Below, piece after piece: positions 9,411 to 62,003 of a DNA stretch of 64,000 nt (the first letter of the stretch is position 1; each line of letters starts with the position of its first letter). The DNA comes from Girardia tigrina (Eukaryota): assembly GCA_001938485.1 (NCBI GenBank), contig MQRK01251327.1:1-64000 (forward strand). The letters are read 5' to 3'. Position numbers and translations under genes: made by a program. The notes beneath the pieces were generated by a model, which did no database searches, was not told the origin of the DNA, and saw only the letters and a list, made by a program, of their open reading frames with translations.

Positions 9411-9414
9411 TATA

Positions 9415-9849: not shown

Positions 9850-9950
9850 ATATAATTTTTGTAACTTATATAAATGAGTTGTTGCATCGATGAAGACTTT
9901 TTTGATTTTGGAAAGGTGAATGATAAAAAATAAAATTATATTGAAGTCAT

Positions 9951-10714: not shown

Positions 10715-11091
10715 GACCATTAATGTACAATGATCTTAAGGATTTCATAAATGGAGCAGAAACACCGGAAGGAATCGATGAACTGTACTGTATTCACTCA
10801 TATGGTTTGCCCACTCCAAAAACACTTGTCTTCACTTCCTTTCCAGACAAACAACCAACAACCGTTGATGGTGATGGCGATCATACTGTTAATATTGAAA
10901 GTTTAAAAATTTGTGAACAATGGAAAAATGTTCACTATTATAAATATGAAGGTCTCGACCATATGGAAATAATCAGTAAACCAGTGTTTCTAGAGAAACT
11001 TCATCAAATTTTGTATCGCCAACCCAATAAGAAGTTTCAGTTTCAAAATTATAAGAAAAAACAACCAAAAAATTTTGTGAGGTTGATCTAA
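10715..11091 (+). CDS. PLA2G15/LCAT-like phospholipase/acyltransferase, copy A, terminal exon only
   Basis: TTTCAG acceptor in the same phase-1 position as exon 5 of copies B and C. It encodes PEGIDELYCIHSYG, GDGDHTVN (catalytic Asp) and DHMEI (catalytic His). No upstream exons are visible in the window. Confidence 0.85.
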
Positions 11092-11607
11092 ATATTTGAA
11101 CCTCAATTCGTATTCGATTCTTCAAATAATAACCTTTGACAAAATAAATATAAAGTCTTGAAAAGAGCATTGGACTATTGATATATTGTACAACATTATT
11201 AATATATTATTATTTTAAGCATTATATTTTGATTTGTGTATAAAATAGTCTTGTATGAAACGGATTGAGGTTATGTGATGACTGGTTTAAGTTTCATGTG
11301 GTCATAAACAAATGAAGTTCAAAATTATTTATTTTAAATTAAGGAAAAATACACTTCTGAACTTGAAACATTCTCTAAGACCCATGCAGAAACTTCCTTT
11401 CATCTTTAAAAATGTCAATCGTTTGTTAGAAGCAATTTGATATTTATGGAAAAAAAATAAAAAATAAGATAAATAATTGAATAGTTATTTTTAATTGTGA
11501 TATAAGTCAACTTCAAAATAATAGTAAACATTAATTTATGGTAATACTTTGATACCCCTTTACATATTTAAAATAATGCATTCAAAGGAATTCGATTGTT
11601 TTAGAAA

Positions 11608-11964
11608 GTGTACAAAATAATTATGGTTAATAATTATTGTAAAAATCTGTTGATGAAAGAGCGTATCGCCCGCGATATACCCTGCATATTTGGTGACCAA
11701 GAAGATCTGGTCGAATACCAGGAATGCTTGAATGATAGAGGAATTCTCAACATTGGCGAGGAATTCAAACACCTGATCAAAGGAACTGTGTCTGAAAAGC
11801 TGACAGAATTGATTGAACAGAAAAAAGAGTATCCGAAAATGATCCAGTCGCGTATTAAAAGAGTGCATTGCACGTATCCGTCTTGTTTCAAAGCTTTTGC
11901 GGAACAGAAAAAATTAAAAAGACACATCAAAAGAGTTCATACGGTCACGACACCACAGAGTTAG
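11608..11964 (+). pseudogene. ORF fragment with a C2H2 zinc finger, probably a transposon-derived relic extending to about 12500
   Basis: CTYPSCFKAFAEQKKLKRHIKRVH. Downstream sequence stays coding-like in composition but is broken by stops. Confidence 0.45.
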
Positions 11965-13664
11965 AATTGCAACAAACCTTTTAATGCACCATGTAAAATT
12001 GTAACAAGACCTATACAACGGATGGATAGTTAAAGCGAAATTTACTGATCCATTACCGAACCCGTGGCAGTACCAGTAGTACTAATGTTTCACAAAATAA
12101 CGTAGATAAAGGATGTACAAATCTTTGAACCAGATCGCAATGTATGATGTGTCAGTGCCTCTCAGCGGTAGCGCGAAGATGGACTCAGGATTGATAACAA
12201 TGGTGGTTCTCGACTTATAGTTAAGTAATACATCTGATGTAGGGATATTTCGGTGTCACTTTACTCATTGTACGAAATGTGTTTACGCAGCCAAAGCTCT
12301 ACAGAATGGCACGAAGGATCATGACTGGTCCCTTCTGACTGGGAAACCGAAGCGTTGCCGTGCACTGAAAGCTAGCATTCTTGCATCTAAAACCGCGCGA
12401 GAATGTCAGTAGGCTCTGTATTGTCTATTTATGGTTTATAACCGATACAGAGTCTATGGCTCACTACCCTGTACGCCAATGATACTTCAAACTTTCTATG
12501 TCATCTTCTGTTTGCAAGCTTTTTTCCGTTCAGTCTGGAGAGGCTTATTATTAAAAAGGTTTTTATCAAATTCTTTTTTCGAAAGTAGAATAAGCTCATT
12601 CTTATTAATTATAATTAAAATAAATTTCTTATTGAAATAATTATTGAATATTTTGACCATATCCAATTTTACTATGGTAGTTCTACTTTTTTTCAAAAAC
12701 AACATCGACAGCAAGATAATTGCATTATTGTTTTGATGAAACAGCGAAAATTTTATTTATTTTGCATAGGTTTCTTTTACAAGTTCTTCTTTTTGGTTTT
12801 TGTTGTTGTTAAGATTTCCATAATAAATAAAGATAAAATTTTAAAAATTAACTGATTTAACAAATGTAGGAATGCGGACTAACTAACATTCAATTACATT
12901 ATTAATGAAAGATTATTGAAAGTTAGACATAAAGGTGATAAGCATTAAAAAGATCTGGAAATAATATTCCTGTATATAAAATATAAAATAATAATTGTAA
13001 GTGTTAAAAAGTAATCGAAAATCTTTTTCTAAATTTTGTAAGATATTAGTAAATATTATAAGCACGTATTCTCATCTCTGGCTTGTAAACAGAAAATGAT
13101 GTAGCAAGTTTGAAGTACCATCTAGAGATTTTAGTTATAATTGATTTTTAAATAATAAAATTAAAGCCTTGCGGTAAGTAAAACATAATATATATATTAA
13201 CTATTTCTAATAAAAATCGAGTAAATAACACATAAAACACCATTTTGATAAAAACATGTTTTGGTAGTTTTGGTTTATTCAGTTGTTTAATTGAAAATTT
13301 CAAATTCGAATCATTTACATAGCGACATGCCATTTAGTAACATTACCTGACTTTCATTACTTAAATAATATTTTTTTATATATTTTTTATTTATTTTTTA
13401 TATTTAAATAATATATCTAAAACAATTAGTATTTTGAAAATTTAAAAAAATCCCGTCTCCCCTGAAAAATTTTAATTATGATCTTAATTACCCATAAGTT
13501 TTGGAGAACATAGACACTTTTCTTCCTCAAAACATTAAACATACTGTAGATAACAAAATCCTTCTATCTATAAAAGTCAGTAATAAACAATGGCCAAGTG
13601 ATATTAGTTGTATTAGTGGTATTTCGATGGTATTATAAATTTTATTATTTTAATAATAATTAAT

Positions 13665-14228
13665 TTAATTTTTTGAACTGTAAAAATAAAAACTGGAAAA
13701 AGAAAACAAGTTGGACGGGATTCCGTGTCTCCACGATATTTTAGGCTGAGAATAATTACTTTGTTTACGATAATTACTGTTTTTAAATTTATCGTCATTG
13801 AAACTCAGACAATTTTTAACGAAGCAATATAAAAGGTTGTGAGGGCAATAAGCTGCACCGGCACTCAATAACAGTTGACAAATTCGATAGTTTCCACAAG
13901 AAACCGTAAGATCCAATGGTGTGAGGCCAGTTTCTTTATCGACAAAATTCACTTCGCAATTTTTATTCATCAATGACTGAACTATTTGCTCGTTCTCATT
14001 CCAAACCGCCCACCACAACGGCCTCCGGTGGTGCAAGCCATCAGAATCAAGATCGGCACCCTTTCCAATCAGAAAGTTGACGGCAGAGACATTTATTCTC
14101 TCACAAAACACACGCAAAGGATAAGACACGTCAGAACAATATATTTTTGCCTCCTTTGCAATTTTATCGGCAATCTTCAAACGTTTAAGAATGTGATCAA
14201 TCTCTTTCGAATTCAATACTAACGACAT
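13665..14228 (-). CDS. Intronless ankyrin-repeat protein (about 3 repeats), C-terminus possibly frameshifted
   Basis: AVNFLIGKGADLD, RRPLWWAVWNENEQIVQSLMNKNCEVN and GLTPLDLTVSCGNYRICQLLLSAGA fit the ankyrin consensus. Confidence 0.7.
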   Translation of the reverse strand: MSLVLNSKEIDHILKRLKIADKIAKEAKIYCSDVSYPLRVFCERINVSAVNFLIGKGADLDSDGLHHRRPLWWAVWNENEQIVQSLMNKNCEVNFVDKETGLTPLDLTVSCGNYRICQLLLSAGAAYCPHNLLYCFVKNCLSFNDDKFKNSNYRKQSNYSQPKISWRHGIPSNLFSFSSFYFYSSKN

Positions 14229-15749
14229 TTATATATATATATTTTTTCTTTTTTTTTAAAAAGGAGCAAGAACGATTTATTTTCAAAAAAAATTGAATTG
14301 GATCACAGTTCACCTTTTTCCCCTTTTCAAATCAAAATTGTTATTGACAAATTTTTTTTTTAAATTGGTTATGAAAAAATTGTGATCATAATTCACAATT
14401 AAGATGATAACACACAGACATAACAAACACAAACGCACTTTAACCAATCAATTATACATATTCAAACAATTACATTGCATAATCACACATACATGCAATC
14501 ATTCAGATTCATACAAACAAAAATAAAAATACATACTTACATTGACAGAAAGCTCAATTAAAAAACTCCAAAGAAAAAAAGGAGGCTCACAACCGACAAT
14601 CACACTCTATACATGATTCAAATATCGATTGCATAATTTGCCATTTTCCACCGACCAAGCAAACACGAGTGTGCGCATTCCGAACTCTCCAAATCTTTAT
14701 TTATGAATCTAATTTTGAAACACTACAGTTTTAATTAACAACCGTTCTTGATACATTTACTTTTGATTTATTTTGATTGATATTTTATTTAAATGTTTTT
14801 AAATATTCACATATTCTTTCTTTAATAAACATTTATTTATATTTTTGATTTAATTTCTTTTTTATTTATTTAACTTATTTATTTAATTTAATTAATTTAT
14901 TTAATTATTTAATTACTTTATTTTTACTTAATTATTTTAATTTCTTTTTAATTAATTTATTTAATTTTATTTAATTAATTTAATAATTTAATTATTTAAA
15001 TATATATTTTTATCTATATACATTGAAACTGGCAAATAAATGTTCGGTCAAAATTGGCAATTCTCCGCTCCACAAGTATTGTGTAATATTATGTCCCCCT
15101 GAAATATTTTTCTGTGTAAATAAAAAATGATAAAAATACTTACATGGAACAATGAAAAAATCTTGCAAAATGAATGATGAAAAATTAATGGATTATAAAA
15201 TATCTTCCACAATTTAAAAGTCGTTACTCAATTTCTTTAACTCCCAAACGAACTTCTGACTTGAACGTCACAAAAATGTACAACTTTTACGTATGAAAGT
15301 ATGACGATAATTTTAAAACATTTCTTAGCTTGCAAATCCAAAAACATTTTAAAAATACTTTTCATCTAAATTTTAACTACCCTCTTTAAAGAAAAGAGTC
15401 GAAAATGTGGTTTCTTAAAAAAAGAAAATTACAGCTACTTTAAACCTGAATGGAAAGGCAGATAGAAGAACAAAACATGTATGATGTAGAACTGTAATGT
15501 AGAACTGTCTGGAAAAACTAAAATAGGAAATCCAAAACGAACCATATTATTATTTCGCGTTTTCTTAAGATATTCAAAAGTCCCTTACATATCTTACGTT
15601 ATTAGTTTTTGTAAAACACTTTAAGCGAAATATGTATATTTTTATTGAAAGGTTTAATAATTTTCCTGATAACAGAATTAACTGTAACTTCCAAAGGTTT
15701 AGAAAAAACTGCATCTTGTTGTCCAAAATATATTCAAAATACTTAAACC

Positions 15750-17495
15750 ATAATTAAGTATGAAACAGTACCCGGTGAAACATGTGAAGAAAAATTAAGA
15801 CCAGCGTTCTCCAAGGAAAAAGCTGTACTATATATAATGAAAGAAATGTTAGATTTGAGAATTGGCTCCAGCGATCCCACAATAATATTTAGAAAGGCAG
15901 ACGAACTAATAGAGAAAATGGTAGAGAAAAAGCTAGGGAAGAAAGAACTATCGAATTTAGTATACGCTAACTTGATAGATGATGATGATGTACAAAAACA
16001 AGTAGCCATTCAAGGTATCACGAAATCTGATGAGATTGAAGAAATACAAACAAGAATGTTCGAACATGAGAAAAAGAAAAGAAATGCACCAGTGGCAGCA
16101 TATAATACAAAAAGAGCAAATGAATGGAAAAAACTGGAAAATAAAAAGAAAACAACAAGACCGCGGAATCGAGAAATTCCAGAAGATACAAGAAGAAATT
16201 TTAAAGTCAGGAAAATTACTTGTTGGGCATGTCATGAAGAAGGACATGTTAGAAGAGATTATCCAAATGTGACATGTAATCATTGCAATAAAAAAGGACA
16301 CATAAGAACACAATGTTATGAAAACCCGAATATTTTTAAGGAACGCGAGGAATGGAAACGGGATAATGGAATAAATCGATGGGAAAATGATAGGAAAAAT
16401 TACTCGAATCAAAGATATAGAGATAGGCCGACGTACACAAATAGGAAATATTCAATAGCGGAATACGACGAATTAGACGATGAATTGTATGAAGGAGATA
16501 ACACTTCAAGACGGGGCTATACCCACGAAACCAATAGAAAAGAATATTCTAAAAGACAGGAATATCCCAGAGGTTACAGAAAATTCAGAGATGATCAAGG
16601 AAACGAGGATGCACGATCACAGGGAGAGGTGATCAGTGTGCTTCATTAGAAAGTCAGTGTAGATGTATGTTTGATTGTACATATTAATGTGTGTGTGTGA
16701 TTGTATTTTTGATTGTATGTATGAAAATATTCCTCTAGAAATGTGTAAATTAGATAGTTTGAATAAAGAAAATTATGAAAAATGTGATAGCATGGATTTT
16801 GAAAAAGAAAGAAAGGAAAGAAATATTACAACAGATATATTAAAAATAACAAAGTTTGACATAAATTATAAAAATTGAAAGAACGGCCAAGTGTAGAATT
16901 TCGTATAAAAGATAAAAATGTTCAGTGCCTTTTAGATACAGGAGCCCGAGTGAATGTCATTAAGGCGGATTTCATCAAAGGTATAAAAAATATTCAGATT
17001 AGAGAAACGAGAAAGCGTATTCACTGTGCGAATGACTCAAAACTTGTAAACTATGGAACTGTACAATTAAAGGTGATGATAGAAAGGGTACAGAAAACAA
17101 TAGAGTTTTATGTTGTCAAAGAAATAGATCCGGAAATGATTGCTAGTATAGATTTTTTGGATAAATTTGGAATAAAACTGAAGAAAGAAGCATCAAATAT
17201 TGATAGGATATTGGCAATTAGAGATAGCCCTTCTGATGAAGATAGATTAAAATGAATAAGAGAATTGTACAATACTACAAGTGAACATGAACTAATGGAA
17301 CTTTTAACAAAGTACAGATCAATATTCATGGCTGATAAATAGGATATTGGAAAAAACTTCGTTAACCAAACACAAGATAGAAACACATGGAGAACCAGTA
17401 TTGGTAAAACCGTATAGACAACCAAAATATTTTGAAGAAAACGATATGATCGAAAAGTGTAGTTCTCCTTGGAACTTTCCTTTAGTATATGTCGT
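15750..17495 (+). mobile_element. Ty3/Gypsy LTR retrotransposon fragment (gag, protease, start of RT)
   Basis: Two zinc knuckles CWACHEEGHVRRDY / CNHCNKKGHIRTQC (15837-16649), aspartic protease CLLDTGARVN (16875-17255), and HKIETHGEPVLVKPYR...IEKCSSPWNFPLVYV preceding RT. Truncated after that. Confidence 0.92.
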
Positions 17496-18099
17496 TTTAT
17501 TTAACAGATTCATTCAATTCAAAGAAGCCGGGTTTGAATTTTTCAAGAATTTTAAAGAGAAAACAAATTTTTCAATCAAAAACAATTTTCGCCCCAAATC
17601 TAAGATTTTATTTATGATTTAAAACAATTTACAAAATTAATGAAATTCAATTAATGTTCATTTTTTGCAAAAAAATCGGTCAATTCAATTCATATCTTTC
17701 AACATTCAAATCAATTCGTCTGTTTATAAAAAAAAATTAATTGTTTTGTTCTTCAAAAAAATATCATTCGAGTTCCGACAAAAATCAATGAACTCAACTC
17801 GAGAACAAAATATTTTAAATCAATTTGAACACAAAAAATTCTGACAAATTTACAAATCACAATTTCGCCATCACTAATCAAAACGACAGATTCATATCCA
17901 AATAATGAAACCGATTGAAAATATTATTACTAAATATACTACTGAGTTAAAAAGATCGATTAAACTTATTTTTTGTAAATGATCAATAATGCAGCTTGAT
18001 TGAGAATTTGAAATTGCGTTTCGGAAAAAATCACCGTTTTCAAACTTTTCAACAATTCGACTTTTTTTTATCATCAAGGTCAAAACATCGCAAAACACC

Positions 18100-20105
18100 G
18101 GGGTTCTTTTCGTGTGGCATCTCCTGGCACCACTAAATTGGGTGATCGTTTTTACCTCCTTATATATCTTATACCTTAATATTCATCTTCTGATGATTCT
18201 TCAGCAGAAGATGAGTACTTATCCTCATTGTTGAGATGTTCAACTCTATCAGCATAAGATTTTAACATCTCATCGAGGACTGCCGGGTCGAATTCTTCTA
18301 TATTATTTCCCATTTGCATTTCCTCCATATTGTCGGGTTCTTCCATGTTCAGTATGGAGTCCATTGGTGCTTCTTCCCTTATTTAGATCCGGTTAAGTCT
18401 TTGGATCCCTCTGCATTTCCCATCCCTGTGAAATACCCATTGTACCGAAGATTACTTGACATTGGATATCTAACACGCTATCACAATGCGCCTAATTGTC
18501 TTCGGTGGGATCGTCAGAATACTCTTTGGAAATGTTCTGATACGCCCTACCTGAAGCATGTAGAGCAGTACCGTTGTATTTGGCATGGCTGTCTGACACG
18601 CTTCTGCCAAGGACTTGTAAAAATCCAGATTCTTCGTGTTACTGTTCTCCATATTTCTTTTGGTGTCATATGGGCACTTTACATCTATTATACATAAGGT
18701 TTTTTGTCCCGGCACCATAATTTGTAGATCTACATGGGACTGTGGTGGAACATATACACATACATCATCCACATTTATGTCACAGTCTAGATGTTGTGTT
18801 ATCTGTTCACCAGAAAATATAATATTTCATTGTGGTGGTACTTTTTAAACTCGGCACTAAAATGATATTCGGTCAAGATATGCACCAGAGTCTCCTTATT
18901 ATGTGGACATCTTCTACAGTGCCTCCCGTATATATCTAATACCTGGTCGGTATTTGACGAACACTGTATATGTCATGGCCTTGTGAAAAAAGTACCATTC
19001 ACTATAGTTCAATGCTCCTCCATACTCTGTACCGTGAAAACTAACTGTGGAGGTTAGACTTCTCACGAATCTCCCAGCACTGCTTTGCTTCAGCCACTTG
19101 TGTGTCCAAGATTTTTCGACAAGTCTTCTAAGTGTCCAGGACACACTTTTAGTCAACATCGGCGTGAGCAGTGTGTTTTCATCAGTGTTGTCCGTAATTA
19201 TCTCTGTCATTCCATTTTCCAATCTTCTCTCCCAGACCAGAGTCTGGTGTACATGAAGACAGAGGCCACGTTCATTCTGCAGTAACTCCACTCTTATTTG
19301 ATGCAGTTTGAATAGTTTGTGAATAACAAACTTTATTTTATCCCACTAGTTCTTTATTTTCCCTGATTGTGTTCCTCTGTTGAGCCAGTTTATAGCAGCC
19401 TCAATAAAGATAAGGTAAAACTTTTTCCACGTTCTACCCGTAGCACCTCACTGGTGCGAAAATAATGTGGCATCTGTTGTCACTATATCACTACAAACAA
19501 TCATTTGAAAGCAGTGAGAAAGTGACTGTATCATGTACTCATCCCATATAGATTTCATGCCCACCCCTCTATTTTCTTTCGGGGTGTCTACATATACATT
19601 GGATGCATTCTTTGGAAGTCCAAAAACTTTCATGTGAAACAACCTAACAATGTTGTCTAGACTGTGTCTGGTTTCAGTATACTATATGGGAGGAAGAAGA
19701 TACGAAATATGAAGATGAGTTTGGAGTGTAAATATACCATGTATGCCTGCAACTTCTGCCAAGGGAATAAGATTGATGTTGTAATCGTTTCTGTTTCCTT
19801 GAATATTGCTGCAAACTACTCTGTTGGCGCGACCGTTATGTTTTCTGAAAAGTGTCCACCAAGGTACACAACAAACTCACCCTCACTTATCTCGGGAATT
19901 TTCTTCTTATATATCTCAATATCTTGATTGGATTTATGGGGATGTACAATATGCGCACACTTGCTGGGTCTGAATTTGATGCCTAACACTTCTGTTAGTT
20001 CAACAGTCTTGTCAACAAATGTTTGCGTAAAGTCTCTAGAGCTAGCAAGAAGCACAAGATCATCAGCATATGCTAAGCAACTAACCTTGTGATTGACAAT
20101 TATCC
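18100..20105 (-). mobile_element. 5'-truncated non-LTR retrotransposon of the R2/NeSL group (RT plus restriction-like endonuclease), decayed
   Basis: CLAYADDLVLLASS (RT motif), VYLG, PKENRGVG, the zinc-knuckle-like RRCPHNKETLVHIL and the REL motif DLQIMVPGQKTLCIIDVKCPYD. Confidence 0.88.
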
Positions 20106-21758
20106 ATTATCATCAAACAAAAATATCGCCGTATTGATTCTTTATCGTAACCCATTTATTTATTGTCGTTTTTAATCACAAATATAAATCAAAAGATTAA
20201 TTTTTTCGAATAATTCTTTTCATTTGTTTACACCACATAAACTCCCAGTACAATTTACTCATTAAAGCAACAAATATTATAACAATTTTTAATTTAATTA
20301 TTTTATTAATCTTTCCTTTTTCTTCTTAATATATAAATCTTTAATTTTTTCTTTAACAATCATTTAATTTGTTTAATCTTCTTTTTTTAACTTTATCAAT
20401 CGTAAAATATATCGTAAAAAAGTAATAATAATGGGTTAACCAAAAATAATCTCACAGTTGAACACTCATAAGTTCATTTCATAGTGATCATTTCATGATT
20501 GTGACTGCAAGTGTCCATTTGATCTTTCGATATCTGATTTTTGAAAAGTCGCACATCACTTTTTTTTAAAAATGCACTTTTTTGACAGATAAGCCGCGGC
20601 TTATATGCGCGATATAACTATATAGAGTTGTTGAAAAGTATGTCTTTTTTGTAATTTTTTTTTTCACTAAAATAAAACCTCGTTTAAATTAGAAAATTGG
20701 ATTTGAAGGAAAGTATTAAAATTTTCTTTGTGTTAATTTATTATTATTTTTTGTGATAAACTGTCAATCATGAAGAATTTTATGATATGGGTTGTATAAG
20801 TCGCAACTACTTTTGTTTCTTTTTAACTTTAATTTTTTCTCAGTTAAGTCTCACCTTATCTTCGCGATAATAAGATATTAAAAAATATAAATAATATTTT
20901 ATATTTTTAAATTTACTTTTATACCATTATTATAAAAATTAGTAATTTTAAGTTTCGCTTTCAATTAAAGGCTGAAGACTTTTAAATATATTTAGCCACA
21001 ATATATTTCAATTGTTCAATCGTCATCGATAGGTTACTGACTAATTTTATGATTCACTTGTTAATAAAACCCACATGATTATTTTAGTCACAAGAGAGAG
21101 AGAGAGTACTTTAAGTATCGGTTTAAAACTTTTTATTCAATTAATATGTACTATTCCTCTTATAACTGTAAATAAATGTTTATAATTCAAGAACAATATT
21201 AACAATATATATTTATAATTAAAACGGAAAGATAAAAATAAGATTAAAAATCTCAATATCAACAGAAACGGAGTAGTATGGAAACAGATTAACAATATAA
21301 GTATCTAACTATTAAATGTCTGAGAATGTAAAACAAGGAACATGAATATTCTTCGAACAATAGGTTAATATAATAATCCAAATTAAATGAGGGTGATTGA
21401 AGTGTTAGTGTTTGACTTGAAATTCTCGGGCCATGATTGATTTGATTTGGAACTAATGAAAGAGGGGCACAATGACGAAAATATCACGATTTGTTTTGCC
21501 TGTGAACAATTTAAGGATAATATTCGTTTTATTATAAAAAATCAATAATAATTAAATAATATATAATGTTTATATTTATAAATATACTATATGATATTTT
21601 AATAAATATAATTGTATCAGTGGTTGTACAATGTGAGGTCCTTAAAATTATATGCGATCAAATGATTGAAATTAAGTTATTTTAAAATTCATCATTCGAG
21701 TGTGAATTATGAGAACAGTTTACCAATAAGACTAATTGATAATGTGTTTCATTATCAA

Positions 21759-24285
21759 CTGGGGTGGGGTCCGGCCCGTAGCCCGTACATTGCCGCCCGG
21801 CCCGAGGTACGGGCTATTATATATAAATTAGCCTCTTCATTTTCCAATATTTTCTGGACATACACATAATTTTAAATACTAAAACACTGAATACCGCATT
21901 ATAACAAGCACTTATGATTACAGTATGCGACAGTTAATACCGCAAAATTTAATACCAAAATATTTAATCCAAAATATTAAAAAATTAAAATGATTATTAA
22001 ATTAAAATAATTATTTGTTTATTTTAACTTTTTATTGTTAATGGAAATTAATATTGCACTACAAACGTTTTTATATTTATTTTATTTAAGTTTTATAACC
22101 TAATTTTTCCAAATTAATACCAAAACATTTAATCCCTAAGAAACACTTAAGTTTATAAAAAAATTAAATGATTAATTTTTTTAAAAAATAAATTTGAAAA
22201 ATTAATTTTATCATTATTTTATTTTGAATAATTTAAATATTTTTAGTTTACAAAATTTGAAAATCTTTTGTCAGAACTCTCCATATAAAATATAAAATAT
22301 TAATTTAATTTTAAATTCAATGCAAATTAATTTAATAAATTAATGGTTTTAGTTTTTTTTCAAAGTTTCTCTTATTTCTACAATTCCTCAGTTACTATCT
22401 ATTCTCATTACTACCTATTCAGATTTCTTTTATAATGATCACTTAAATACAAGTGCAATCTGCAAGATGTGTCTTTCGAAATTTGAGTATCACCAACAGA
22501 AGGCGGGCACCCGTAGTTTGAAACGACATCTACATAATAAACACCCAAAAGTTTCCAGCTTGAAAGAGAAGACCAAGACAACTTTGAGTCAACAGCATCC
22601 TACTCTCATTTCCTGTGGATTTATTGAACCTCGTGCTAAAAAGTGACGCGTTGAAGTATGCACTTTAAAGAAATCTTTTTTAACACTCGCATGTAGTCGC
22701 CATATTCTACCTCTTCAATTCTTTGAAGATCCCATCATTTCCAAAGGCTTTGGTCTGCAATCCATCAGTCGTCATGATGTTAGAAATGACTTGAGGAAAA
22801 TGACAGTTGAAATTAAAAGTGATTTGATGGACAAGCATCGTGATGAGTGGGCATCAATTGTGCTAGATGGTTAGAAAAATCCTGTATCCCACCACAAACA
22901 TTTAACAATCTTATTATTTTTCTCAAATGAACCCTCAAAACCAGTGCTTTTGCAGAGTTTTTTGTTACCTTACAGTAGTGCACTGTCTATTTCAACGTGT
23001 GTATTTGATGTACTTAACAATTTGGATTCTTGGGATATCAAGGTTATCAGTGCTATGACCGACAATGACAGATGTATGGTTGCCGTGATGTAGCTTGTAT
23101 TTCAACAGCACCCTACCGTGTTACCCCTAAGATGTGCTGCTCACATAATCAACCTTATAATTAAAGATGCGTTGAAAAATGTTGATTTCATTAGAGTTGA
23201 TTTTCAAATACTCTCGAGCTACAGTCAGAATGGTATTATAAAGCGCAATTGTGAGACTAGATGGAATAGTGTCTTCGATCGTTTTATTGATCTGGCAAAA
23301 TACCTCCGTGCACAAGATGGGTCATCGCATTGAGAACACAATATCAGCTTTGTCTCCTTTCATTGATGTACTCAATGTTGCTCAAAAGTACGGTTGTGAT
23401 TGGCTGACGTTGTACAAAGAATTCTCCAAAGCAGTAGCAAAGACCTCTGAATCCGATCCGAACCACTTGGCAGCGGTGGCTGAAAATCGCAGACAATTAC
23501 TACTGAATCCAGTTGTTCACCTTGATATGTTTGTGAATGAGCAAACGCAGTTATTTGAAGCTTCTGAAGGTTCGATTTAATCACTCCTTTAAATTTGACA
23601 TTTTCTCTGCAACAATTACTGAAGAATACAGTGAATTCGATTGTATCGGCCATGATGAAGATGATAGTGGTAAGTGAAATCCTTTTTCTTTGTACATGGA
23701 TTTTGAAATAAAGATTTATTCTTAGTTATTTTGAAATTATTTAATAATCATTTAATTTTTTTATAAATTTAATTGTTCCTACTGCATTAAATGTTTTGAT
23801 ATTAATTTGGAATAATTAGGTTATAAAACTTAAATAAAATAAATATAAAAACGTTTTTAATTCAATATTAATTTCCATTAACAATAAAAAGTTAAAATAA
23901 AAAATAATTATTTTAATTTAATAATTATTTTATTTTTTTAATATTTCGGATTAAATATTTTGGTATTAAATTTTGCGGTATTAACTGTCACATACTGTAA
24001 TTATAAGTGCTTGCTGTAACGCGGTATTCATTTTTTAGTATTTAAAATTATGTGTATGTCCAATAAATATTAGAAAATGTAGAGGCTACCTTATATTTTT
24101 GGCCGGGCAGCAAGGTATGGGTTACGGGCCGTAAAATGACAGCCTCCGAATGATGTAAAATTCTGCCGATGAGCGATAGTTAAAAATGTAAATGCGTCAT
24201 GTACTGTAGCCGTAGCTCGTAGCCCGTAATTTGAAGCCCCTAGCCCGTAAAATGACATCCGGGGCCCGTACGGGCTCCACCCCAG
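21759..24285 (+). mobile_element. hAT DNA transposon with both ends, pseudogenised transposase (about 22400-23650)
   Basis: Perfect 8-bp TSD ATTATCAA (21751-21758 and 24286-24293), TIR CTGGGGTGG, long subterminal inverted repeats and GCCCGTA motifs. Protein motifs: BED finger CKMC...LKRHLHNKH, LDG, MTDN, RCAAHIINL, CETRWNS. Confidence 0.95.
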
Positions 24286-24696
24286 ATTATCAACAAAAGT
24301 AAATTTTACATTGTTTCAAAAAGAATAACCCATAAAGTAACAGATTTATTTTTTGAAATATTTTAACTTCTATCTATAGATTTGTACTGAAAACAATTAA
24401 AAGTAAGTTTTTTTTAGAAAATAGAAGCAAAAAATCAACAAAAAACATTTTGTTTTCCAAAAACCATTTGGTGATCGTGGGAGGTACAATTCTGACAAAC
24501 ATTTTAATATCATCAACTTAATAAAAAATAAGTTAAACTAATGATATCCAAATGGGGATTTCAGCATTAAAATATCTTAAAAATACAAATTTCTTAAAAA
24601 AAAGCCTTGAATCTTTCAAATTTTTAAAGAAACTCTCATGAAAAATATTTTGGTCTCAAAATTTTATTTTATAGATGTTTTTTAAGGTTGATTCGA

Positions 24697-24764
24697 TAAT
24701 AATAATAATAATCATTATTATTATTATTATTATTATTATTAATTAATTAATTAATTAATTAATT
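24697..24764. repeat. (AAT)n/(ATT)n/(TTAA)n low-complexity palindromic tract
   Basis: Directly visible. Confidence 0.8.
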
Positions 24765-50000: not shown

Positions 50001-51831
50001 TAACTAATTTTGCACGTCGTTTTACAAGTTTGTTGTTTTATAGAAATGAATAAACCATTGTACAGAGTAAATACATATTCTTTAACGAACTTTTTAACAT
50101 CATACGACTGCAGGATATGTGGTGCTATGCTGTGTCACGATATTAAGTCAACATAGGAATTCGCCCCAACATTCTAAGTAGTGATCTCATATTTTCTAAT
50201 TCTGCTTTGATTTTTATTTAAAACCTCGAAAGTTATTCAATGGTTACTTTTCCGAAGTTGTTTTATTTATCATATATCATTAATATTAATATATTTTTGA
50301 AATCAGCAAAATTTAAAGCTCTGATTCAATAAAAGCTCTAAGATATAAAAGTATTAAAAGTAAGAAGAAAATTAAATTTCAAATAAATTGTTCGGTACAG
50401 TCTCCAGATCACCATATAGACTGTCCAGTTGTAGCAGAAGCATAGTATTCGTTCGTTTTGTGTTGGGACATTGTTAAGATAATGGTTTGTTCATTGATAA
50501 TTTTTATGTTTTAAAATTGTTAGCAATAATTCAGATCGTTTTATAATTGTCGATTTCGTCAGCGAAAATAATTCATTCAAGAGCTTCAAGAGTCAAAATA
50601 ATCGTGAGAAAATCAGATTTTTTAAAAAATTATATTTCTCCTCAATCAAAAATTCCAGATTTCAAAATAAAATAATTCATTTTAAAAAATTTATTTATTG
50701 TGAAAGATCTTTCGAGAGTTGTAATTTTACAAAATATTTTCATCACAATTGAGTCGTCGCTCACTGCATAGATAAACTTGAAACAGTCATAAAAATTTCA
50801 ATCGTTTTTTCAATTCAATTCCAGTAAAAATTTTCATTGTTTAACAAATCAATTTGAAATACTTTTAATGGTATTATAAAATTCGAGAAAATAAAAATTG
50901 TGATTTTGAAATCCCTTGAGACTGATGAAGATCGGTCGACCAATCAGAGTGAGCCATTGACTCAATCAGTTTCTTTCTCTCCAATCGTCAGTTATGACAT
51001 ACACAATACACTAATAGCAATAATAACCGGAACAAAGACATCATTGTTTGGTTTTTCTAAATCGATTTTTGTTTTTATAACTTTAAACATCATTTTTAAT
51101 AAATTTTTATTTTGACATTATTTATTTAATTTACTTTAATTTAATATTTTCATAATTATAAACCGATATACATATCGTTATATGTAAAATTATGAAGCAC
51201 AAATACTTCAGCGATAAACAATTAAACATGGTAAAACGATTATAGTTTTGAAGGTTAAAAAAATTAAAAAAAGGTTAATTAAAAAAATTTGATTAAAAAA
51301 ATAACAAATTAATAATAATCAAATAAGTTTAAAATTTTTAATTAACAAGAATATATTTAAATTTTCGAAATAATGGTTATTTGCAGTTTGAAATATTTTT
51401 CTTCTTATTGTTGATGAGCAATGAATTTTATGACTATGAAACATTATTTAGGTACGATGATGTATAACGACACAAAAGACATTGTAAATGGTCAAGAAAC
51501 ACCTGAAGGAATTGATGAACTTTTTTGTATTCATTCTTATGGGTCAAAAACCAAGAAACAAATGGTGTTCGAATCATTTCCTGATGGAAAACCAAAGATA
51601 ATATATGGTGATGGAGATGGTACCGTTAATATTGAAAGTTTAGAGATTTGTAAACACTGGGAAAATGTGCAGTATACAACCATACCAAATGTGGAGCACA
51701 TGAAAATAGTGGGTGACCAAATATTCATAAAGAAAATTAGAAAAATTCTTTATAAACAACCAAATACGATGTTGGAAATTGAACCACTGAGAAGTACAAA
51801 ATCGGATGACAATTTTAATATAATTTTGTGA
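41056..51831 (+). CDS. PLA2G15/LCAT-like phospholipase/acyltransferase, copy C, join(41056..41294,41341..41561,45026..45253,47624..47809,51452..51831), about 417 aa
   Basis: Signal peptide, PLILVPGIGGS, IRGAPYDFRKAPNEN, VILGHSMG, GDGDGTVN, EHM. Lengths of exons 2-5 are identical to copy B (221/228/186/380), and the spliced CDS is in frame (1254 nt). Confidence 0.92.
42896..43420 (-). mobile_element. pogo/Tigger transposase C-terminal relic
   Basis: The minus strand reads TKTNRMRRANY*NISNWVIES*NAVIPKCVKNYFKRG, similar to pogo C-termini. There is a TIR-like CCATACTTTTTGTGCATAACC at about 42897. Confidence 0.45.
45800..46090 (+). mobile_element. 3'-truncated copy of the solo-LTR family; a further diverged fragment starts at about 46270
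   Basis: Closely matches 40206-40500 (TGCGAGGAATATTTTGAATGTTTGATG...CTCTCCTACCCAGATGG). Confidence 0.8.
46960..47120 (+). mobile_element. Ty3/Gypsy gag N-terminal fragment
   Basis: GC-rich island reading KIVPAYDGRGDFSIWIERY...NKLVMLPLALTGEA. Confidence 0.6.
48351..49082. mobile_element. Long palindrome plus (GACA)n element resembling a non-autonomous Helentron (HINE/DINE-1-type)
   Basis: ~135-bp inverted arms (48351-48486 / 48560-48692), a (CAGA)n tract at 49007-49052, and a terminal GAAAAACGTGGTAAAA complementary to ACCACGTTTTTC in the arm. Confidence 0.6.
49190..49540 (+). pseudogene. Old Penelope-like RT C-terminal/GIY-YIG relic
   Basis: SDIVYAYKCNECDTV at about 49482-49526 parallels NLVYQFKCHKCESL. 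Upstream EVCFS...EIEV resembles the PLE linker. Confidence 0.4.
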
Positions 51832-53574: not shown

Positions 53575-56500
53575 TATAACTTGATTAAAAAGTAAATCTT
53601 CGATCAATTCTAATTATTTTCATTTATGGTTAATAATTCTTTAAATGTGAAATTTAGTTTTCTATTTAATTCCTTGATTCTCGATAAGAACGCTCCTAGT
53701 TCCATATAAGAATGTAAAATATCATTTTATTAATTCTTTGATGTTTTCAAAGGCCGTATCTAATTTGCAAGATTTTGGATCACATAAATTATTTGAAATA
53801 ATATTTATTTGATGATCAATATTTTTACGTAATTTGTTCTTTGTTTCATTTATTCTTTTTTCTAATAATTTTTTTCTATTTTGATTTAATCAATCTTTAT
53901 TTAACAGATAAATCATTAAATACTGTTTGATTTATGGAACAATCTTCCAAACTTTTCATTTATAAATTTTACATAATTTTTTTTGCAATTGACGTTTATA
54001 TAATCTTCAAGGAGTTTGTTAAATAACCAATTAAAATAATCTTCCTGAATGTTTAGATCCATTTAAAATTAAATAAATTCATTATAATTTTATAAATACA
54101 TTTGAAAAAAAATTATATAATAAAATTTTAAAAAACATCTAGTTATTAAAAATTATCATTGAACAGAAAAAAATTGTCAAAAATTTCTTAAAAAATATTC
54201 ATTGTATAGAAAAGAATTTCTCATAACATAAATTTAAAAAATATCAAAAGGATTTTAATAATTCGAGAATAACGAAAAAAACAAAAGAAATTTTTATTTT
54301 CATTAAAAAAATCATATATCGAAGTATCGTTGTTGATTCTGATATTAAATTAAATATTGACAATGATTTTTCTAAGAGGATTTCCTCTAAATCTTTCCTA
54401 AAATTTCGGAAACAAATTTGACTCATTTAAAATTCATAATGTCGATTCAGATACACAAAATTAAAAAGTAGGAATTTAAATAAATTCGTTTCGAAAAATA
54501 GTACAGTAAACAGAAAATTGAATTTTTGAAACAACTAGCTTCAAAAACTGGAACAGATTATTTCTCCTCCAACGGTTCTCCAACGATTGTTTAAGAAATC
54601 GGAATTTCAAATCTGTTTTACTACTTCTCGACTTAACTATATATATATATATATATATANNNNNNNNNNNNNNNNNNNNNNNNNNNNNNNNNNNNNNNNN
54701 NNNNNNNNNTATATATATATATATATATATTATATTATATTAGTAAAAAATTTTAATATATGTAAAAATATATATATTTATTATATTATTATTATTAAGG
54801 ACACAAGACTGATTTTCATAAAGTTTATTTTTATGAAAAAATCAGTGATCAGTCTCTGATTGTACATTTCAAAATTCTGCGAAAAACAACTAATTTTTAA
54901 ACAATGTGTCTTTTATCAAATTCATAAAAATTAAATTAATTAATTTAATTTTAAGACAGTTTCCAAAAATACTAATTGTTTGGGAGAGTTTGTATTTCAA
55001 TTCACATCATGCAAGCATACGTTTACATTAAACATTTCATGCAAACATTTATAATTTCAAACATACCTTACAAGTATGACAAAATATTAAATTTATTTTA
55101 ATAATAAAATATTTGTTTGACAAATATCTTAAAGTATTTTACATTAAGTTATAATAATTATAATTCTGATAAATATTATACTTACAGCAATTAATACAAA
55201 AAGAAGACAAATAATACTGAACTACGAAGGAAATACTTATTAGTTTCCAATCATATCCATATAAATGCAATTAAAAATGCACCTGCTGCGTACTACCTAT
55301 GCAAAGGAAAATATCATCAGCAAAGACATCATCGAAACAGAAAAAAATCAGTCGATTCTGCAGATTTCCATTGAAGAGAGATTGAAAGAAGCTATCTTGA
55401 TGTATACAAAGTCGAAAACGAAGATTGTAGAAACTGATTTGATAGGTGTGAAGATCTGNNNNNNNNNNNNNNNAAAGGCGGTGTTTATAAGATAAAATTC
55501 ACCGGTGATGGATGGCATTTGATAAAAAAATTGAAGAAATTCGAAAGAGTCAAATCGATTTGGAGGAAATAGAATTTGAGATCGGCGATCAACAGTCGAG
55601 TTGGATAGAAAGAGAAGATCAAATTGATGAAATATCGGTCCTCATGGATTTTAACCTCACTTAAATTGAACTCGTTCGAATCCGATTGAGACTGTGGAGT
55701 TACTGTGATAAATTATCGATGTATGAAAAAGTAATCGATCAATCCTCGACCAAATTCAATCGGGATACTTGTGCTGAATTCAAAAGTCTTTCACCGTTTG
55801 AATTATCGATCAAATTCCAATGGATTATAGTCAAAAGTTGCGAGTTTCTCGAGAAACATCACTGTTCCGTTGTTCCAATTGAAATGAGATCAAAGGAAAA
55901 TCGATTGGATCTTTTGGCAGATTGCCTGAATACCGATAGAAGCCTCTATCGTAACCTCGAGTAAGTAATCGAAGCGACATCGTTTTTATTCGATGAAAGA
56001 AAACCCTCCGATAGAAAATACCACGAAGGAGAAGCGTTACGATTGGTCGCCAATAAATCAATTGAAAATAACGATTATTTCTCGAAATCGATTCACGTCG
56101 GCGAGTCGGGGGATCAAAACGACTTGTGATCCGGTCAATTGGACAGATGATAAAAATGTCGTCAAATTATTGAATGAGTCCTTGAATAAAGCACCAGCGG
56201 GAGATCTAACGGTAGTAATTATTTTTTCCTCACGACCCGGAATCCGCCCCCCAACCCAGGAGCACCGCGGCCACGAAACCGCTGCGCAACCATCTCTCGC
56301 ACCAGTATTTATGACAGTCTGAATAATATTCAGTCCAAATTTGATTAAATTTGGTAAAATATTAGTGTGTTTTTAAAGGCCACCTGAGGACTTTTGGGAC
56401 AGCCTAAGTAATTATGCTCAGATTAAAATCAAGACATAATTTTAATTATTTAAATTCTCTTTGACAGCGCTAAGCATATGAACTAAGTTATTTCTTATTT

Positions 56501-56732
56501 CTGAATTTAATTTAACGAATTGTATTAAATATTTAAGAATCTCGCTTTAATATTTAAGGAAATAAAATTAAAATTACAAATATAAAAATTGAACTTAGGA
56601 CTTATGCTTAAAATGATTTGATTATGGTTGTCATAATGTTTATAATAATAATTATTATTTATTTTAATGTGCAGAATTTTAAAAACTATAAAATTATATA
56701 TCTGATTGTTTATCAAAGTTATTTCAATCTCG

Positions 56733-57701
56733 ATGGTAGCTTTCAGTTTATTATGTATTGTTGCTTTCCTTGGTACCTGTCTTGGTACATCGGAAGACAC
56801 ATCTAAAATAATTGATAATCCAAGTGACCCCAGTCCTTTAATACTGATACCAGGGTATGGAGGATCAAGAGCTTATTCAAATTTGACTATTTGGGATCGA
56901 ATTGAGAAAAAGTTAATATGGGTCAATTATTTATATATATATCGTCCATCGTTGTTGAGGAGATATTTCAAGTAACTCTAAAAATTTAATTTATATCATT
57001 ATTTATAAATAAAATAAAGATTAGAATATGATCCACAAACTCATAAAACGCGAGACGTTGGACAACCTCACATGTATTTTCCCGGGTGGGGTTCAACAGA
57101 AACAATGGAAAATCTTGATAAATGGAAACATAAAAGAACTTCGTACTTCGAGAATCTAGTAAATGAGTTGGTAAAAGACAAATTTTATGAAAGAAACAAA
57201 ACGATTCGAGGAGCTCCATATGATTTTAGAAAAGCTCCAAGTAAATTACAAATTTTATATTTTTTGAAAAGTTTCTTAATTTTAAAAGTAATTTTATTTT
57301 TTGTGACAGTCTGCCTTTGCATTGTGTCGGTATCATTAAGTTACTGTTATACAAAAGAAACATATAGTAATAAAATAACTAATATATAATATAATATAAA
57401 ATAGTAATAATATAATATATAATAAACAAAATGTACAGACATTTTATCACTGTGACACTTTATCAACTGCAACGGGAAATGAAGTTTTTAATATAAAAAA
57501 ATTGGATAATATTGAAAATGTTTTGTTAAAAGTAAAGTTAAAATCTTTATTAATTAACAATGTTTCACAAAAAAAGAATAAATAAAAAATAAAAATGAAT
57601 AAAAAATAACATTAAACTAATTCTAAAATAATAAAAAAATAATTGTGTTATAAATAAAATTTTGGTGTTAATGAGTCTTAATCTCGATCAAGAACCCAAC
57701 A

Positions 57702-57783
<82 letters not shown>

Positions 57784-60700
57784 TACTAGCAAAAGACTCT
57801 CATGTATTAAGCGTTAGATAAATTTTTGCATTGGAAAGTTTCTGTTTTAATTTTTAACTCATAATTATTATAATTTATTATTTATTGTTTAATAAATAAT
57901 TTTTATTTATTATATTATTATTTTATATTTAATAATTATTAATTAATTTGTTTACATTAATTAATTTTAATTAATTAATTATTTTTTTATTTAATTTATT
58001 ACAATTTATTATTAATAGTTATTAATTTATTCCTTTTTATTTAATTATTATTTTTTAATTTGTTTTTATAAATTATCTTACTTTATTATATGCATTTTTT
58101 AGTTTTTTAATTATTATTATATTGATTGTTTTTAATTTATTAAATTTTTATTTTATTTTATTCATTTTATTTTTTTAATTTTCTTTTATTTTTGTATTTA
58201 ATAATTCTATTATTATTATATACTTGTAATTTTAAGTATAATTTTAGGTATAAGATTAATTATCATTATTAATATATTTATTAATATATATTTGTAGATA
58301 TTGTTATATATTTTTTTATTTAATTTTTTATTATGAATTTTAAGTAGATTATCACGCGTGACCGACAAACAACCAAATTAACTAACATTTTAGACATATA
58401 TTATAAATTACTATTATTTATTGTATTATATATTAGTTACTTTAGTACTATGTTTCTTTTGTATAACAATAACTTCATGATAATTTAAATTAACAAAAAT
58501 CATTCTTATTTATTAAGAAATTTTAAAAATTAAAAAACGAAACGAAGTAAATTTCCTGAAAAACTGTTTTTTTTAAAGAAAACAATACCCATATTTCTAC
58601 AATTGGGAAACTGTTGAAAGAAGATTATATTTTTGTTCGTTATAATATATTCTAGTCCGGGTACTTATTGAATGCACCATGTAATTTCTGTTAAAATAAA
58701 AATAGTTGTTGCAATCATTGTACTTGTTCATATTTTGCATTTCAAAATTTTATTATGAAATTTATATCATACTTTTTTTAGATGAAAATGAAAATTTTTC
58801 AAGCGATCTGAAAAACTTAATTGAAGATACTTACGAGGTTTCTGGTTATCAAAGAGTAGTGATCCTGGGTCACAGTATGGGTTCTCTATATACTTTATAT
58901 TTTCTTCGAAAAATGTCTCTTTCTTGGAAGAAGCAATATATAAGAGCATTCATATCAGTTAGCGGACCTTTCGCAGGATCAGTAAAAGCAGTTGAATTGG
59001 AAACTAGTGGTAATTTCTTACTGTTGTTCAGTTCCTAATGATTAAAGTTGTAATCGCACATTTTCTATTTAATATAATTCTTTTCTTTTTGATCTTAACC
59101 ATTGAGCCGCGGGTGCACCTTCGCCACATATCTCTATTTGTAGCTTCTTTTCTCAGACATTCCATATTCAATCCACTCCATTCTTTTAAATCATCTATCC
59201 ATCGCCTCTTTGGTCTTCTTCTTGGTCTTTCTCCTTCCACTCTTCCCTCAATCATAACCTTTTCCAGTGCTTGTTTTCTTAATTGATGTCCGTAGAATTT
59301 CAGCTTCCTTCTCTTGATGGTCTCTTTTATTGATTTCGGTTTTTTACCTAGTATTTCTGTCACTCTCCTCCAGAAAAAGTCGTTTGTCTTCTTTTCTTTC
59401 CACGTGATCTTCAGCATTCTCCTGTAGCACTTCATTTCAAACGCTTTAAGTCTATCCATGCTCTTCTGATTTATTGTCCAACTCTCGCATCCATAGAAAA
59501 GTGTTGCCCAGACAATAGCCTTATTGATCTTTATGCTGCTCTTGAGATGGATTTCTTTGAGGTTAAACACTGTGCTAAGCTTAATCATTGCGCTTGCTGA
59601 AATACCAATCCGGCTTCTGATTTCTTCTTCGCTTCCCCCGTTCTCTTTGATAGTAGAGCCTAAGTACTTGAAACTCTTAACTTGTTCCGCTTCTACCCTT
59701 CAATGTCAATCTCGAGTTTGATCTCGTTGTTATGGTTTCCTGAAACCATTATTTTGATTTTAGTCTGCTGTTTTCCATTCCAAATTTCTTTGATGCTTTT
59801 TGTAATCTATTCGTAAGTTCCTGAATTTCTTCCTTATTTTTATCGATTGGGTCTATGTCGTCAGCAAATCGTAGGTTGGTTATTCTTGTTCATCCGCAGC
59901 TTATTCCAACATAGTCTACTGATGATTTAAACCAGTCGCTAAATTGCTCACTTGTCAACACTTTTGTTTTTGCGTCTTCGTAAAGGCTCTTAATAATTTT
60001 CGTAATCTGTTTTCCTTTGTTGCGTTTATCCATAGTGTTCCATATTGCTTAAGTTATGTCAAATTATTCTTTTATGGTCTCTGGTTTTCTCATAAATCAG
60101 TCTTAGGTTGGTTATCTGCTCCGTAGTGATGTGGTCTCTTCTGAAGCCTGCCTGTATCTCGCTAAGAACTTGTTCCACTTTTGGTGTGATTCTTCTTTGT
60201 AACGCTTTCAGCATAACCTTTGATGCGTGACTGATCAAAGTAATTGTTCTAAAGTCGCTGTACATTTTGCTATTTGCTTTCTTTGGTATAGGAATGAGGA
60301 TATATTCAGTCCATTGTGAGGGCCAAACTCCATTATTTAAAAGTTTGTTACATATTGTATGGAGAATGGTCACTATATATTCGCCTCCATTCTGAATTAG
60401 TTCCGAGCTGATGTTGTCCATTCCTGGGTTTTTGTTCCTCTTCAAACCTTTTATGGCAACCTATACTTTTAATCTTAAAATTTTGCATTCATGATCTTCG
60501 AAATTTCATTATGTTTCCCACATCTTCAGAAATAACGCTCCAGTCGACATCTGCTTTGAAGTTGTATAGTTCGCTACAGTAATCTCTCCACCTTTTAATA
60601 ATCTATGTACTTTTTGTAAGTACGTTTCCATCTTCATTTTCAATTACATTTATTTGTCTTCTTCCTGACTCGGTCAGTTTCTTAATTGTCTTGAATGCTG

Positions 60701-62003
60701 CTCTAGAATTGTTTATTTCAAAACTACTTTCTATCAATTTTGCTTGTTCTTACGCCTAATCCTCTTTGGCCTTCCTCAGTAACCTCCAAACTTCCTTGTT
60801 CGCCTTTCTGTAATCTTGCATGAACTCTTCGCCGATATTTCTCTTGTTTTTCAGTTGACGTCGTCTGTAACAGCATTCCAATACCTCTCCATTGATCCAG
60901 GGTTTCCTCGTCTTTTGTCTTTTACCCAGAATCCTTTCGGCAGTAATTGTGATAATGTTTGTGAACTTGTCACAGAGCTTTTGTGGTAGCTGGTCTTCTA
61001 GTAGCAGCAAAGGAGCGAATTTTGATGATAGTTCACTCTGATATTTGTCCCTAATTCTAATATCCTTCAGTTTCTCAAGGTCGAAAAGCGCTCTTCGATG
61101 TTTTGTTCTGGTTTTTGGGGAGAGCTTTAGTTTGAAAGTTGTCATGACAAGATCATGATCGCTTCCTATGTCTGGTTTCTTGAGAGTTCTAGTTTTGGCT
61201 TTGTTGACGCTGAATTTGAATTCCTTATGTAGTCTAGTTGTTTCTTAGTAACACCATCAGGAGTATGCCATGTTGTTCTTCTTGATGCCTTGTGTCTAAG
61301 TAAGGTATTCACATACCATCTTATGTCTCTCTGCAAAGTCTAAGAGTATCATGCCCCTCTCAGTTGTAATGTACTGTCAGAATTTTCCGACTGAGGAGGG
61401 GTTAATGTCTTCCCCAATCGCTTAGAACAATGATAAGGTCTTTCTTTGGAGTTTTGTCGATGAGCGTTTTCAGATTTTCATAGAATTCATCAACGACTTC
61501 CTCATCGTAGTCAGTTGTTGGTGCGTAGACTTGGATGATAGTAGTGTTAAATGGTTTACTGGAAATTCTGATTGAAATAATTCTTTCGGATACTGGTGTG
61601 CATTCCATCACATTGATTGCAGTACGCTTGTCCACTATAAATCCCACGCCGTGTTGTTTCCTATTTTAATGACCACAGTACCACACCTTGTGTCCATCCT
61701 CTGTCGTGTATACTCCTGTGCCAGTATATCTCATTTCTGATTTGTAATTTTATTTTTTATTATTAATATATATTAAGTTTTAAATACATTGTCTTAGTAT
61801 TATATTTTTGTAAACAGGGTTTATGGATGCTCCATGTATAAAACCAATTCACTTTAGAGATATTGAAAGATCTTTTCCAAGCACGACATTTTTGTTGCCG
61901 AAACCTGAAATCTTCGGACATTATCCTCTTGTTATCACTCCAAATAAAAACTATTCATCCTACGATTATTCTGAATTATTTCAAGACATGTCCATGGTAT
62001 ATG
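56733..62003 (+). CDS. PLA2G15/LCAT-like phospholipase/acyltransferase, copy D, exons 1-4: join(56733..56971,57020..57240,58782..59009,61818..62003); exon 5 lies beyond the window
   Basis: Signal peptide, PLILIPGYGGS, IRGAPYDFRKAPNEN, VILGHSMG, ERSFPS. Exon lengths 239/221/228/186 match copy C. Confidence 0.9.
57702..57785. repeat. (ATT)n microsatellite
   Basis: Directly visible. Confidence 0.95.
59080..61742 (-). mobile_element. RTE-clade LINE (APE plus RT), decayed and internally deleted, in intron 3 of copy D
   Basis: HGVGFIV, IIQVYAPTTDYDEEVVDEFY, GSDHDLV, PGMDNISSELIQ, QAGFRR, LRFADDI, FKYLGS, YGCESW, AFEMKCYRRMLKITW. Confidence 0.93.

Follow-up and report, generated by a model that had tools for sequence, protein, structure and literature searches.

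Tandem group XV phospholipase A2 genes in Girardia tigrina that differ at the position of LPLA2 Asp13

What does it mean when neighbouring copies of one enzyme gene differ at a single residue that matters in their human relatives? This question is raised by a 64,000-nucleotide stretch of Girardia tigrina DNA (assembly GCA_001938485.1, contig MQRK01251327.1, positions 1 to 64,000, forward strand; hereafter the window), which carries four group XV phospholipase A2 (PLA2G15/LCAT family) genes in tandem on one strand. The original prediction for this locus held that the copies, here called A to D, form a panel of secreted lipases and transacylases diversified at the residue following a Pro-Gly pair (PG-x), and that copy D may be a natural analogue of C31Y, an engineered variant of human LCAT. 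We favour a different account, with moderate confidence: the array would have arisen by tandem expansion, within this lineage, of a flatworm type of group XV phospholipase A2, and its products would be digestive lipases with some division of labour, pH range being the likeliest property affected by PG-x.

Gene models of the tandem array

We searched the 2729 six-frame peptides of the window with a family profile and found 15 LCAT-family exons (E ≤ 1e-11), all on the plus strand, in agreement with tblastn. Copy A contributes one exon, B and C five each, and D four (Table 1). The profile search detected no further LCAT-family exon in the window (next-best E 1.4), and neither a fifth copy nor residual exons of A were found there. 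Additionally, Pfam LCAT (PF02450) matched six of the ten family exons scanned, at 27.9-70.2 bits (cut-off 21), with no match for the three first exons on their own or for B exon 4. Thus both the family assignment and the proposed minimum of four head-to-tail paralogs were confirmed.

All 11 modelled introns are bounded by GT..AG, with phases 2,1,1,1, and the inner exons are equal in length between copies (221, 228 and 186 nt). Copies B and C are complete, encoding 415 and 417 aa without an internal stop. The D model extends for 291 aa to a donor site 2 kb short of the window end, and the A model comprises 124 aa from the last exon, with PG-x outside the visible part. Thus the proposed common exon architecture holds for B, C and D where they are visible, while A shows its last exon only. 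The catalytic Ser is seen in B, C and D and the catalytic Asp and His in A, B and C; the full triad occupies the family positions in B and C, and the parts visible in A and D are kept, as originally claimed. By hydropathy, the first exons encode a hydrophobic N-terminal stretch; this is the feature that speaks for secretion as originally proposed, but lysosomal LPLA2 has it too.

At the protein level, C and D are 69% identical, B and C 62%, B and D 61%, A and B 54%, and A and C 50%. The first introns are very short, at 43 nt in B (25308-25350), 46 nt in C (41295-41340) and 48 nt in D (56972-57019), and positions 41141-41579 of C are ~80% alike to 56818-57258 of D, first intron included. The window is AT-rich (GC mostly 0.21-0.34) and eukaryotic in layout; its seven N runs (555 bases, 26194-55473) lie mostly within AT microsatellites and hit no modelled exon. 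A C-terminal extension of ~25 residues, reaching past the ends of LPLA2 and of the relative P0012, is common to A, B and C at the ends of their last exons.

We also asked whether these genes are maintained. Pairwise rates of nonsynonymous and synonymous change (dN/dS) were 0.25/0.92 for B and C, 0.27/1.13 for B and D, and 0.17/0.67 for C and D, a ratio of ~0.24-0.28, and no pair exceeded 1 over whole exons. Because dN is far below dS, these are old duplicates under purifying selection. A and D might instead be dead or partial duplicates, as A has no upstream exons over 10.7 kb, D has no last exon over the final 2 kb, and a remnant resembling a long interspersed nuclear element lies 18 nt past the third donor site of D. 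However, B and C have an intron 4 of 3.6-4.0 kb, and with one of similar length the last exon of D is expected past the window end. Both A and D also retain open frames, canonical splice sites and a proportion of nonsynonymous differences (pN) well below that of synonymous ones (pS), and we consider decay of either copy highly improbable.

Table 1. Exons and PG-x codons of the four group XV phospholipase A2 genes (positions in the window)
Feature	Positions	Strand	Content
A last exon	10715..11091	+	catalytic Asp, His, stop; Pfam LCAT E 1.8e-6, profile search, tblastn
B exon 1	25075..25307	+	hydrophobic N-terminal stretch; PG-Asp; membrane-binding loop short and without Cys
B PG-x codon	25195..25197	+	GAT, Asp; equivalent to LPLA2 Asp13, LCAT Cys31
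B exon 2	25351..25571	+	
B exon 3	28976..29203	+	nucleophile Ser; Lys202 equivalent retained
B exon 4	29382..29567	+	lid region
B exon 5	33563..33942	+	catalytic Asp, His, stop
C exon 1	41056..41294	+	PG-Ile
C PG-x codon	41179..41181	+	ATT, Ile; Asp13/Cys31 position
C exon 2	41341..41561	+	
C exon 3	45026..45253	+	nucleophile Ser; Asn (45229-45231) at LPLA2 Lys202/LCAT Lys218 site
C exon 4	47624..47809	+	lid region
C exon 5	51452..51831	+	catalytic Asp, His, stop
D exon 1	56733..56971	+	PG-Tyr
D PG-x codon	56856..56858	+	TAT, Tyr; Asp13/Cys31 position
D exon 2	57020..57240	+	
D exon 3	58782..59009	+	nucleophile Ser
D exon 4	61818..62003	+	donor at 62004, last exon outside window

The PG-x position in the window copies and their relatives

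The codons at PG-x encode Asp in B, Ile in C and Tyr in D, as first reported. The first exons of B, C and D alone matched no PDB structure. Because they match neither PDB nor Pfam, we mapped PG-x through P0012 and the family profile. P0012, which is 47% identical to B, has an Asp that aligns on Asp13 of LPLA2 chain 4x90_A (chain numbering offset by one), and the first exon of D aligns with P0012 at the PG-x motif. A single column of the family profile holds Asp13, LCAT Cys31 and Tyr31 of the C31Y structure 4XWG. Thus PG-x falls on Asp13/Cys31/Tyr31 and not elsewhere, as the original prediction assumed. The column lies within a stretch that does not otherwise vary among B, C and D; the residue that follows PG-x is Gly in the window copies and Leu in both human enzymes.

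For structural comparison, P0012 served as a stand-in for the spliced proteins of the window. Its model (predicted local distance difference test score 93.9) best matched LPLA2 (Z 52.5, TM 0.88, root-mean-square deviation 1.5 Å, 358 residues), and LCAT came next (Z 45.7). P0012 thereby shows the three-domain fold of the family, with hydrolase, membrane-binding and cap domains. By homology, the window copies are predicted to adopt the alpha/beta hydrolase fold. Besides this fold, they have in common with human LPLA2 (PLA2G15; PDB 4X90, 4X97) the Ser/Asp/His triad, Asp13 in B, a C-terminal Cys pair, N-glycosylation sequons and the hydrophobic N-terminus. Unlike LPLA2, they have a loop ~9-10 residues shorter that lacks the N-terminal disulfide, Gly for Leu14, Ile or Tyr at position 13 (C and D), Asn for Lys202 (C), a basic core and four tandem copies, and Asp211 is not retained. 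Human LCAT and its C31Y variant (PDB 5TXF, 4XWG) have the same fold (Z 44-46), and the Tyr of D lies at the Tyr31 position of 4XWG. However, the match to LCAT is weaker than that to LPLA2, both in sequence (136 vs 197 bits) and by structure, and Cys31 is replaced by Asp, Ile or Tyr. B, C and D also lack the equivalent of the Cys50-Cys74 pair, the disulfide of the LCAT membrane-binding domain according to an excerpt of bioRxiv 10.1101/422725.

Two homologue searches with single exons as query found no homologues; the productive search used a profile of 12 full-length relatives. The 150 hits of one search were pooled with the new hits of another to give 265 proteins, 9 were set aside, those of 200-560 aa were kept and the four window copies were added. 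The resulting alignment has 183 rows, of which 149 span PG-x and the following Trp. A long-loop group (126 rows) has 26-42 residues between PG-x and Trp and both disulfide cysteines in 126/126 rows. The other 23 rows, including B, C and D (19-20 residues), have 18-21 residues and the Cys pair in 0/23, and we define the short-loop branch from the present data by these two features together with a place in the tree apart from the long-loop animal proteins. An organism name is visible for six of the short-loop rows, and all six are from flatworms; the Atlas top cluster for P0012 and the top structural match for the close relative P0001 are mostly Platyhelminthes. Searches of an open-access library listed no paper on the array, the short-loop branch or natural flatworm variation at Asp13.

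Among 19 short-loop relatives (the 23 rows minus B, C, D and the outlier P0115), PG-x is Asp in 8 (42%) and any of nine kinds of residue overall; it is other than Asp in 11/19, compared with 21/126 long-loop proteins (Fisher p 3e-4, kinship ignored). PG-Tyr occurs in 4/146 rows from outside the window: one short-loop protein, Nilaparvata, Glossina and one more. The flatworm records annotated as 'phospholipase A' or group XV phospholipase A2 (Schistosoma mekongi, Trichobilharzia, Sparganum, Rodentolepis, Cichlidogyrus) likewise have a short loop without the Cys pair and a labile PG-x (Thr, Ile, Leu, Asp). Within the window copies, the Lys202/218 equivalent is Lys in B and D and Asn in C (it is kept in 110/126 long-loop and 13/19 short-loop relatives, and missing from 6/19), and the start of the lid differs. 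Of 259 columns, 30 (11.6%) differ three ways among B, C and D. Thus PG-x, one of those 30 columns and only 42% conserved among relatives, cannot be regarded as the singled-out diversified residue of the original prediction. Columns of this kind are over-represented in the membrane-binding and lid regions (13/58 vs 17/201, Fisher p 0.009, for regions picked post hoc with approximate bounds), and only 5 of the 78 columns well conserved in long-loop proteins differ three ways, PG-x included.

We inferred a 32-row tree with the simple LG+G4 model, in which many inner branches stay open. The four window copies formed one clade (97/94), nested with three other proteins in a 7-row group (100/95), and C and D were grouped (88/88). 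A branch supported at 100/99 parts the 24 non-outgroup rows from 8 long-loop rows; the flatworm records named above fall on the same side of it, although the window copies differ from them in having their own clade with the three other proteins, the C-terminal extension and a core more basic than most. Copy A was unstable, joining C and D in a quick tree and finding no settled place in a careful one, and the short-loop row P0115 fell outside the short-loop group in the quick tree. At least seven changes between Asp and non-Asp are needed on the 32-row tree, and a single clade of the 13 non-Asp rows was rejected (approximately unbiased test, p 3.6e-6).

These data bear on the main rival to our account, in which the genes are dosage or tissue-splitting duplicates and PG-x changed neutrally, through AT-biased mutation from GAT to ATT and TAT. 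The variety of residues at PG-x in short-loop relatives, the share of columns that differ three ways and the lack of any pairwise dN/dS above 1 all agree with neutral change, as does composition: GC content at third codon positions is 0.25-0.29, and the fraction of Phe, Tyr, Met, Ile, Asn and Lys (FYMINK) is 0.35-0.39 in the copies vs a median of 0.29. Set against this are the otherwise invariant stretch around PG-x, the Asp found there in 105/126 long-loop relatives, the measured effects of substitution at this site in both human enzymes (described below) and the concentration of three-way differences in the membrane-binding and lid regions. We judge neutral change to be a serious but unlikely explanation.

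Measured and proposed consequences of substitution at position 13

The human enzymes provide the only measured effects at this site, and the excerpts of the published work describe them as follows. Asp13 belongs to acyl track A and adjoins the oxyanion hole, a position that in other lipases is usually hydrophobic (PMC6027918). The D13F substitution raised transacylase activity at pH 7.4 more than 8-fold and altered selectivity for unsaturated acyl chains, while at pH 4.5 it equalled wild type without any gain (PMC6027918). Acceptor and head-group choice were unaffected, and the authors suggest that the lid determines the acceptor (PMC6027918). In LCAT, C31Y increased cholesterol esterification ~10-fold (PMC4742745), which supports the original description of C31Y as a higher-activity variant. 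Additionally, LPLA2 Lys202 and LCAT Lys218 were modelled to bind the lipid phosphate (PMC6027918; bioRxiv 10.1101/422725). Thus, in the human enzymes, this site is first a determinant of pH dependence and second a tuner of acyl-chain choice, and not a selector of the acceptor.

By analogy, we propose the following for the digestive expansion that we favour. Each gene would encode an alpha/beta hydrolase that bears a signal peptide and binds membranes; an acyl chain would move from a phospholipid to the catalytic Ser and then to water or an alcohol, as in human LPLA2. B retains the Asp13 equivalent, and by comparison with D13F the Ile of C and Tyr of D probably lessen the dependence on acid pH and alter the choice of acyl chain. 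The copies would be set further apart by changes in the lid, in the membrane-binding loop and, in C, at the Lys that binds phosphate. To judge from schistosome family members, the enzymes would serve to digest food membranes, either in the lysosomes of gut cells or in the gut lumen. The excerpts consulted describe two S. mansoni phospholipase A genes as head-enriched, with signal peptides and sequons, and localise one to the anterior oesophageal gland (PMC4671649); S. japonicum orthologues were found (PMC5825161), and S. japonicum pla2g15 is gut-expressed, with RNA interference dilating the gut (PMC11977999). By description, these phospholipases of the schistosome oesophagus and gut (Smp_031180, Smp_031190, Smp_166530 / Sjc_0002842) resemble the window genes: each genome carries several PLA2G15-like genes, they are active in the digestive tract, and two are reported to have signal peptides and sequons. 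We give roughly even odds to this account, in which the enzymes are digestive, Asp is ancestral and C and D work over a wider pH range.

Several points weigh against this proposal. PG-x is labile across the short-loop branch, a pattern that drift also explains, and it is one of many columns that differ between the copies. Asp at PG-x is probably ancestral, with the direction of change, from Asp to non-Asp, given by the outgroup. The neutral-pH block of human LPLA2 is described as largely one of membrane binding: D13F liposome binding at pH 7.4 reached 20% of the acid-pH wild-type level, compared with 9.5% for wild type, and D13A was inactive above pH 6 (PMC6027918, in excerpt). Because the membrane-binding domain is remodelled in the window copies, the human D13F result may not transfer. 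Finally, the schistosome genes are likened to the window copies by published description and may differ from them in loop type and PG-x residue.

Could PG-x instead set substrate preference across a secreted lipase and transacylase panel, with D a hyperactive counterpart of C31Y? The place of position 13 in acyl track A, the altered unsaturated-chain selectivity of D13F, the gain seen in C31Y and the variation of the lid start and Lys202 site between copies all fit such a panel. Indeed, the idea that PG-x tunes acyl preference keeps some merit, although the clearest measured effect is on neutral-pH activity. In contrast, acceptor and head-group choice were independent of position 13. The likeness of D to C31Y is true as an alignment, but PG-Tyr is not unique to D and does not by itself indicate higher activity. 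Because Gly rather than Leu follows PG-x here, the context of the Tyr in D differs from that in C31Y, and because D13F gave no gain at pH 4.5, a hyperactive D does not follow. We regard the panel as improbable.

The charge of the proteins bears on a further alternative, that C and D leave the body, or are delivered to prey or microbes, and damage membranes there, with a role in mucus, predation or defence. The hydrophobic N-termini are compatible with release, as are the basic cores (isoelectric point 9.27 in B and 9.12 in C), since only 2/123 long-loop relatives reach 9.1. Excerpts of related work offer parallels: red-cell lysis was proposed, but not shown, for the S. mansoni oesophageal phospholipases (PMC4671649), and apicomplexan LCAT-family enzymes are reported to act in egress. 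However, B and P0012 are basic as well although each has Asp, and AT bias may be the cause. Since the cores of B and C are similarly basic, charge does not follow the PG-x swap, which also counts against our own proposal; among long-loop relatives it is likewise unrelated to PG-x (median core isoelectric point 6.21 with Asp, 5.96 without). Release of this kind appears very unlikely.

Surrounding elements and significance of the array

Other features of the window include remnants of mobile elements. Upstream of the visible exon of A, positions 1041-4073 (+) contain broken open reading frames (ORFs), one weakly Pox_A32 ATPase-like (E 0.0096, below cut-off) and the next terminase-type ATPase-like (E 2.4e-7), with upstream fragments that look polymerase-like by eye; this is possibly a decayed Polinton/Maverick-type element and may sit in the last intron of A. 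Directly downstream of A, a small ORF at 11605-11964 (+) has a weak C2H2 zinc-finger match (E 0.0022, below cut-off). Between A and B lie an ankyrin-repeat ORF at 13665-14228 (-; Ank_2, E 8.6e-18), a long terminal repeat (LTR) retrotransposon remnant at 15747-17255 (+) with Gag-like zinc knuckle and aspartyl protease ORFs, a non-LTR retroelement remnant at 18470-20106 (-; RVT_1 below cut-off) and a hAT-like transposase remnant at 22353-23580 (+) with a BED zinc finger and a stop-broken frame. Within B, a GIY-YIG-like ORF at 27694-28299 (-; E 0.0014, below cut-off) is flanked by 97%-identical inverted arms (27543-28488), Penelope-like, with related copies at 30970-31407. Most of intron 3 of D is occupied by another non-LTR remnant, 59028-61665 (-; RVT_1 below cut-off), which comes within 18 nt of the donor. 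Positions 9407-9859, 40204-40657 and 45790-46093 hold copies of a dispersed repeat of 300-450 bases that are 80-88% identical to each other. Neither Rfam matches nor tRNAs were found in the window.

The array involves no new mechanism: tandem digestive hydrolases are ordinary, and PG-x swaps are common in this flatworm branch. It is nevertheless informative for the family. Because the whole branch lacks the Cys pair, the membrane-binding disulfide is dispensable, and its absence sets flatworm enzymes structurally apart from those of the host. What is known of Asp13/Cys31 comes from engineered human mutants alone; with Asp, Ile and Tyr at this site in three intact paralogues that are 61-69% identical, nature offers a way to test whether evolution sets pH range there. 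It is possible, though less likely than not, that the short-loop flatworm branch lost the disulfide and then, after duplication, repeatedly replaced Asp13, each time as an acid lysosomal enzyme became a neutral digestive or secreted one. In that case the array would contain such a switch within a single locus, with Asp in B and Ile and Tyr in C and D, and would put the pH-switch model of Asp13 to a natural test, in parallel to the vertebrate split of LPLA2 to LCAT.

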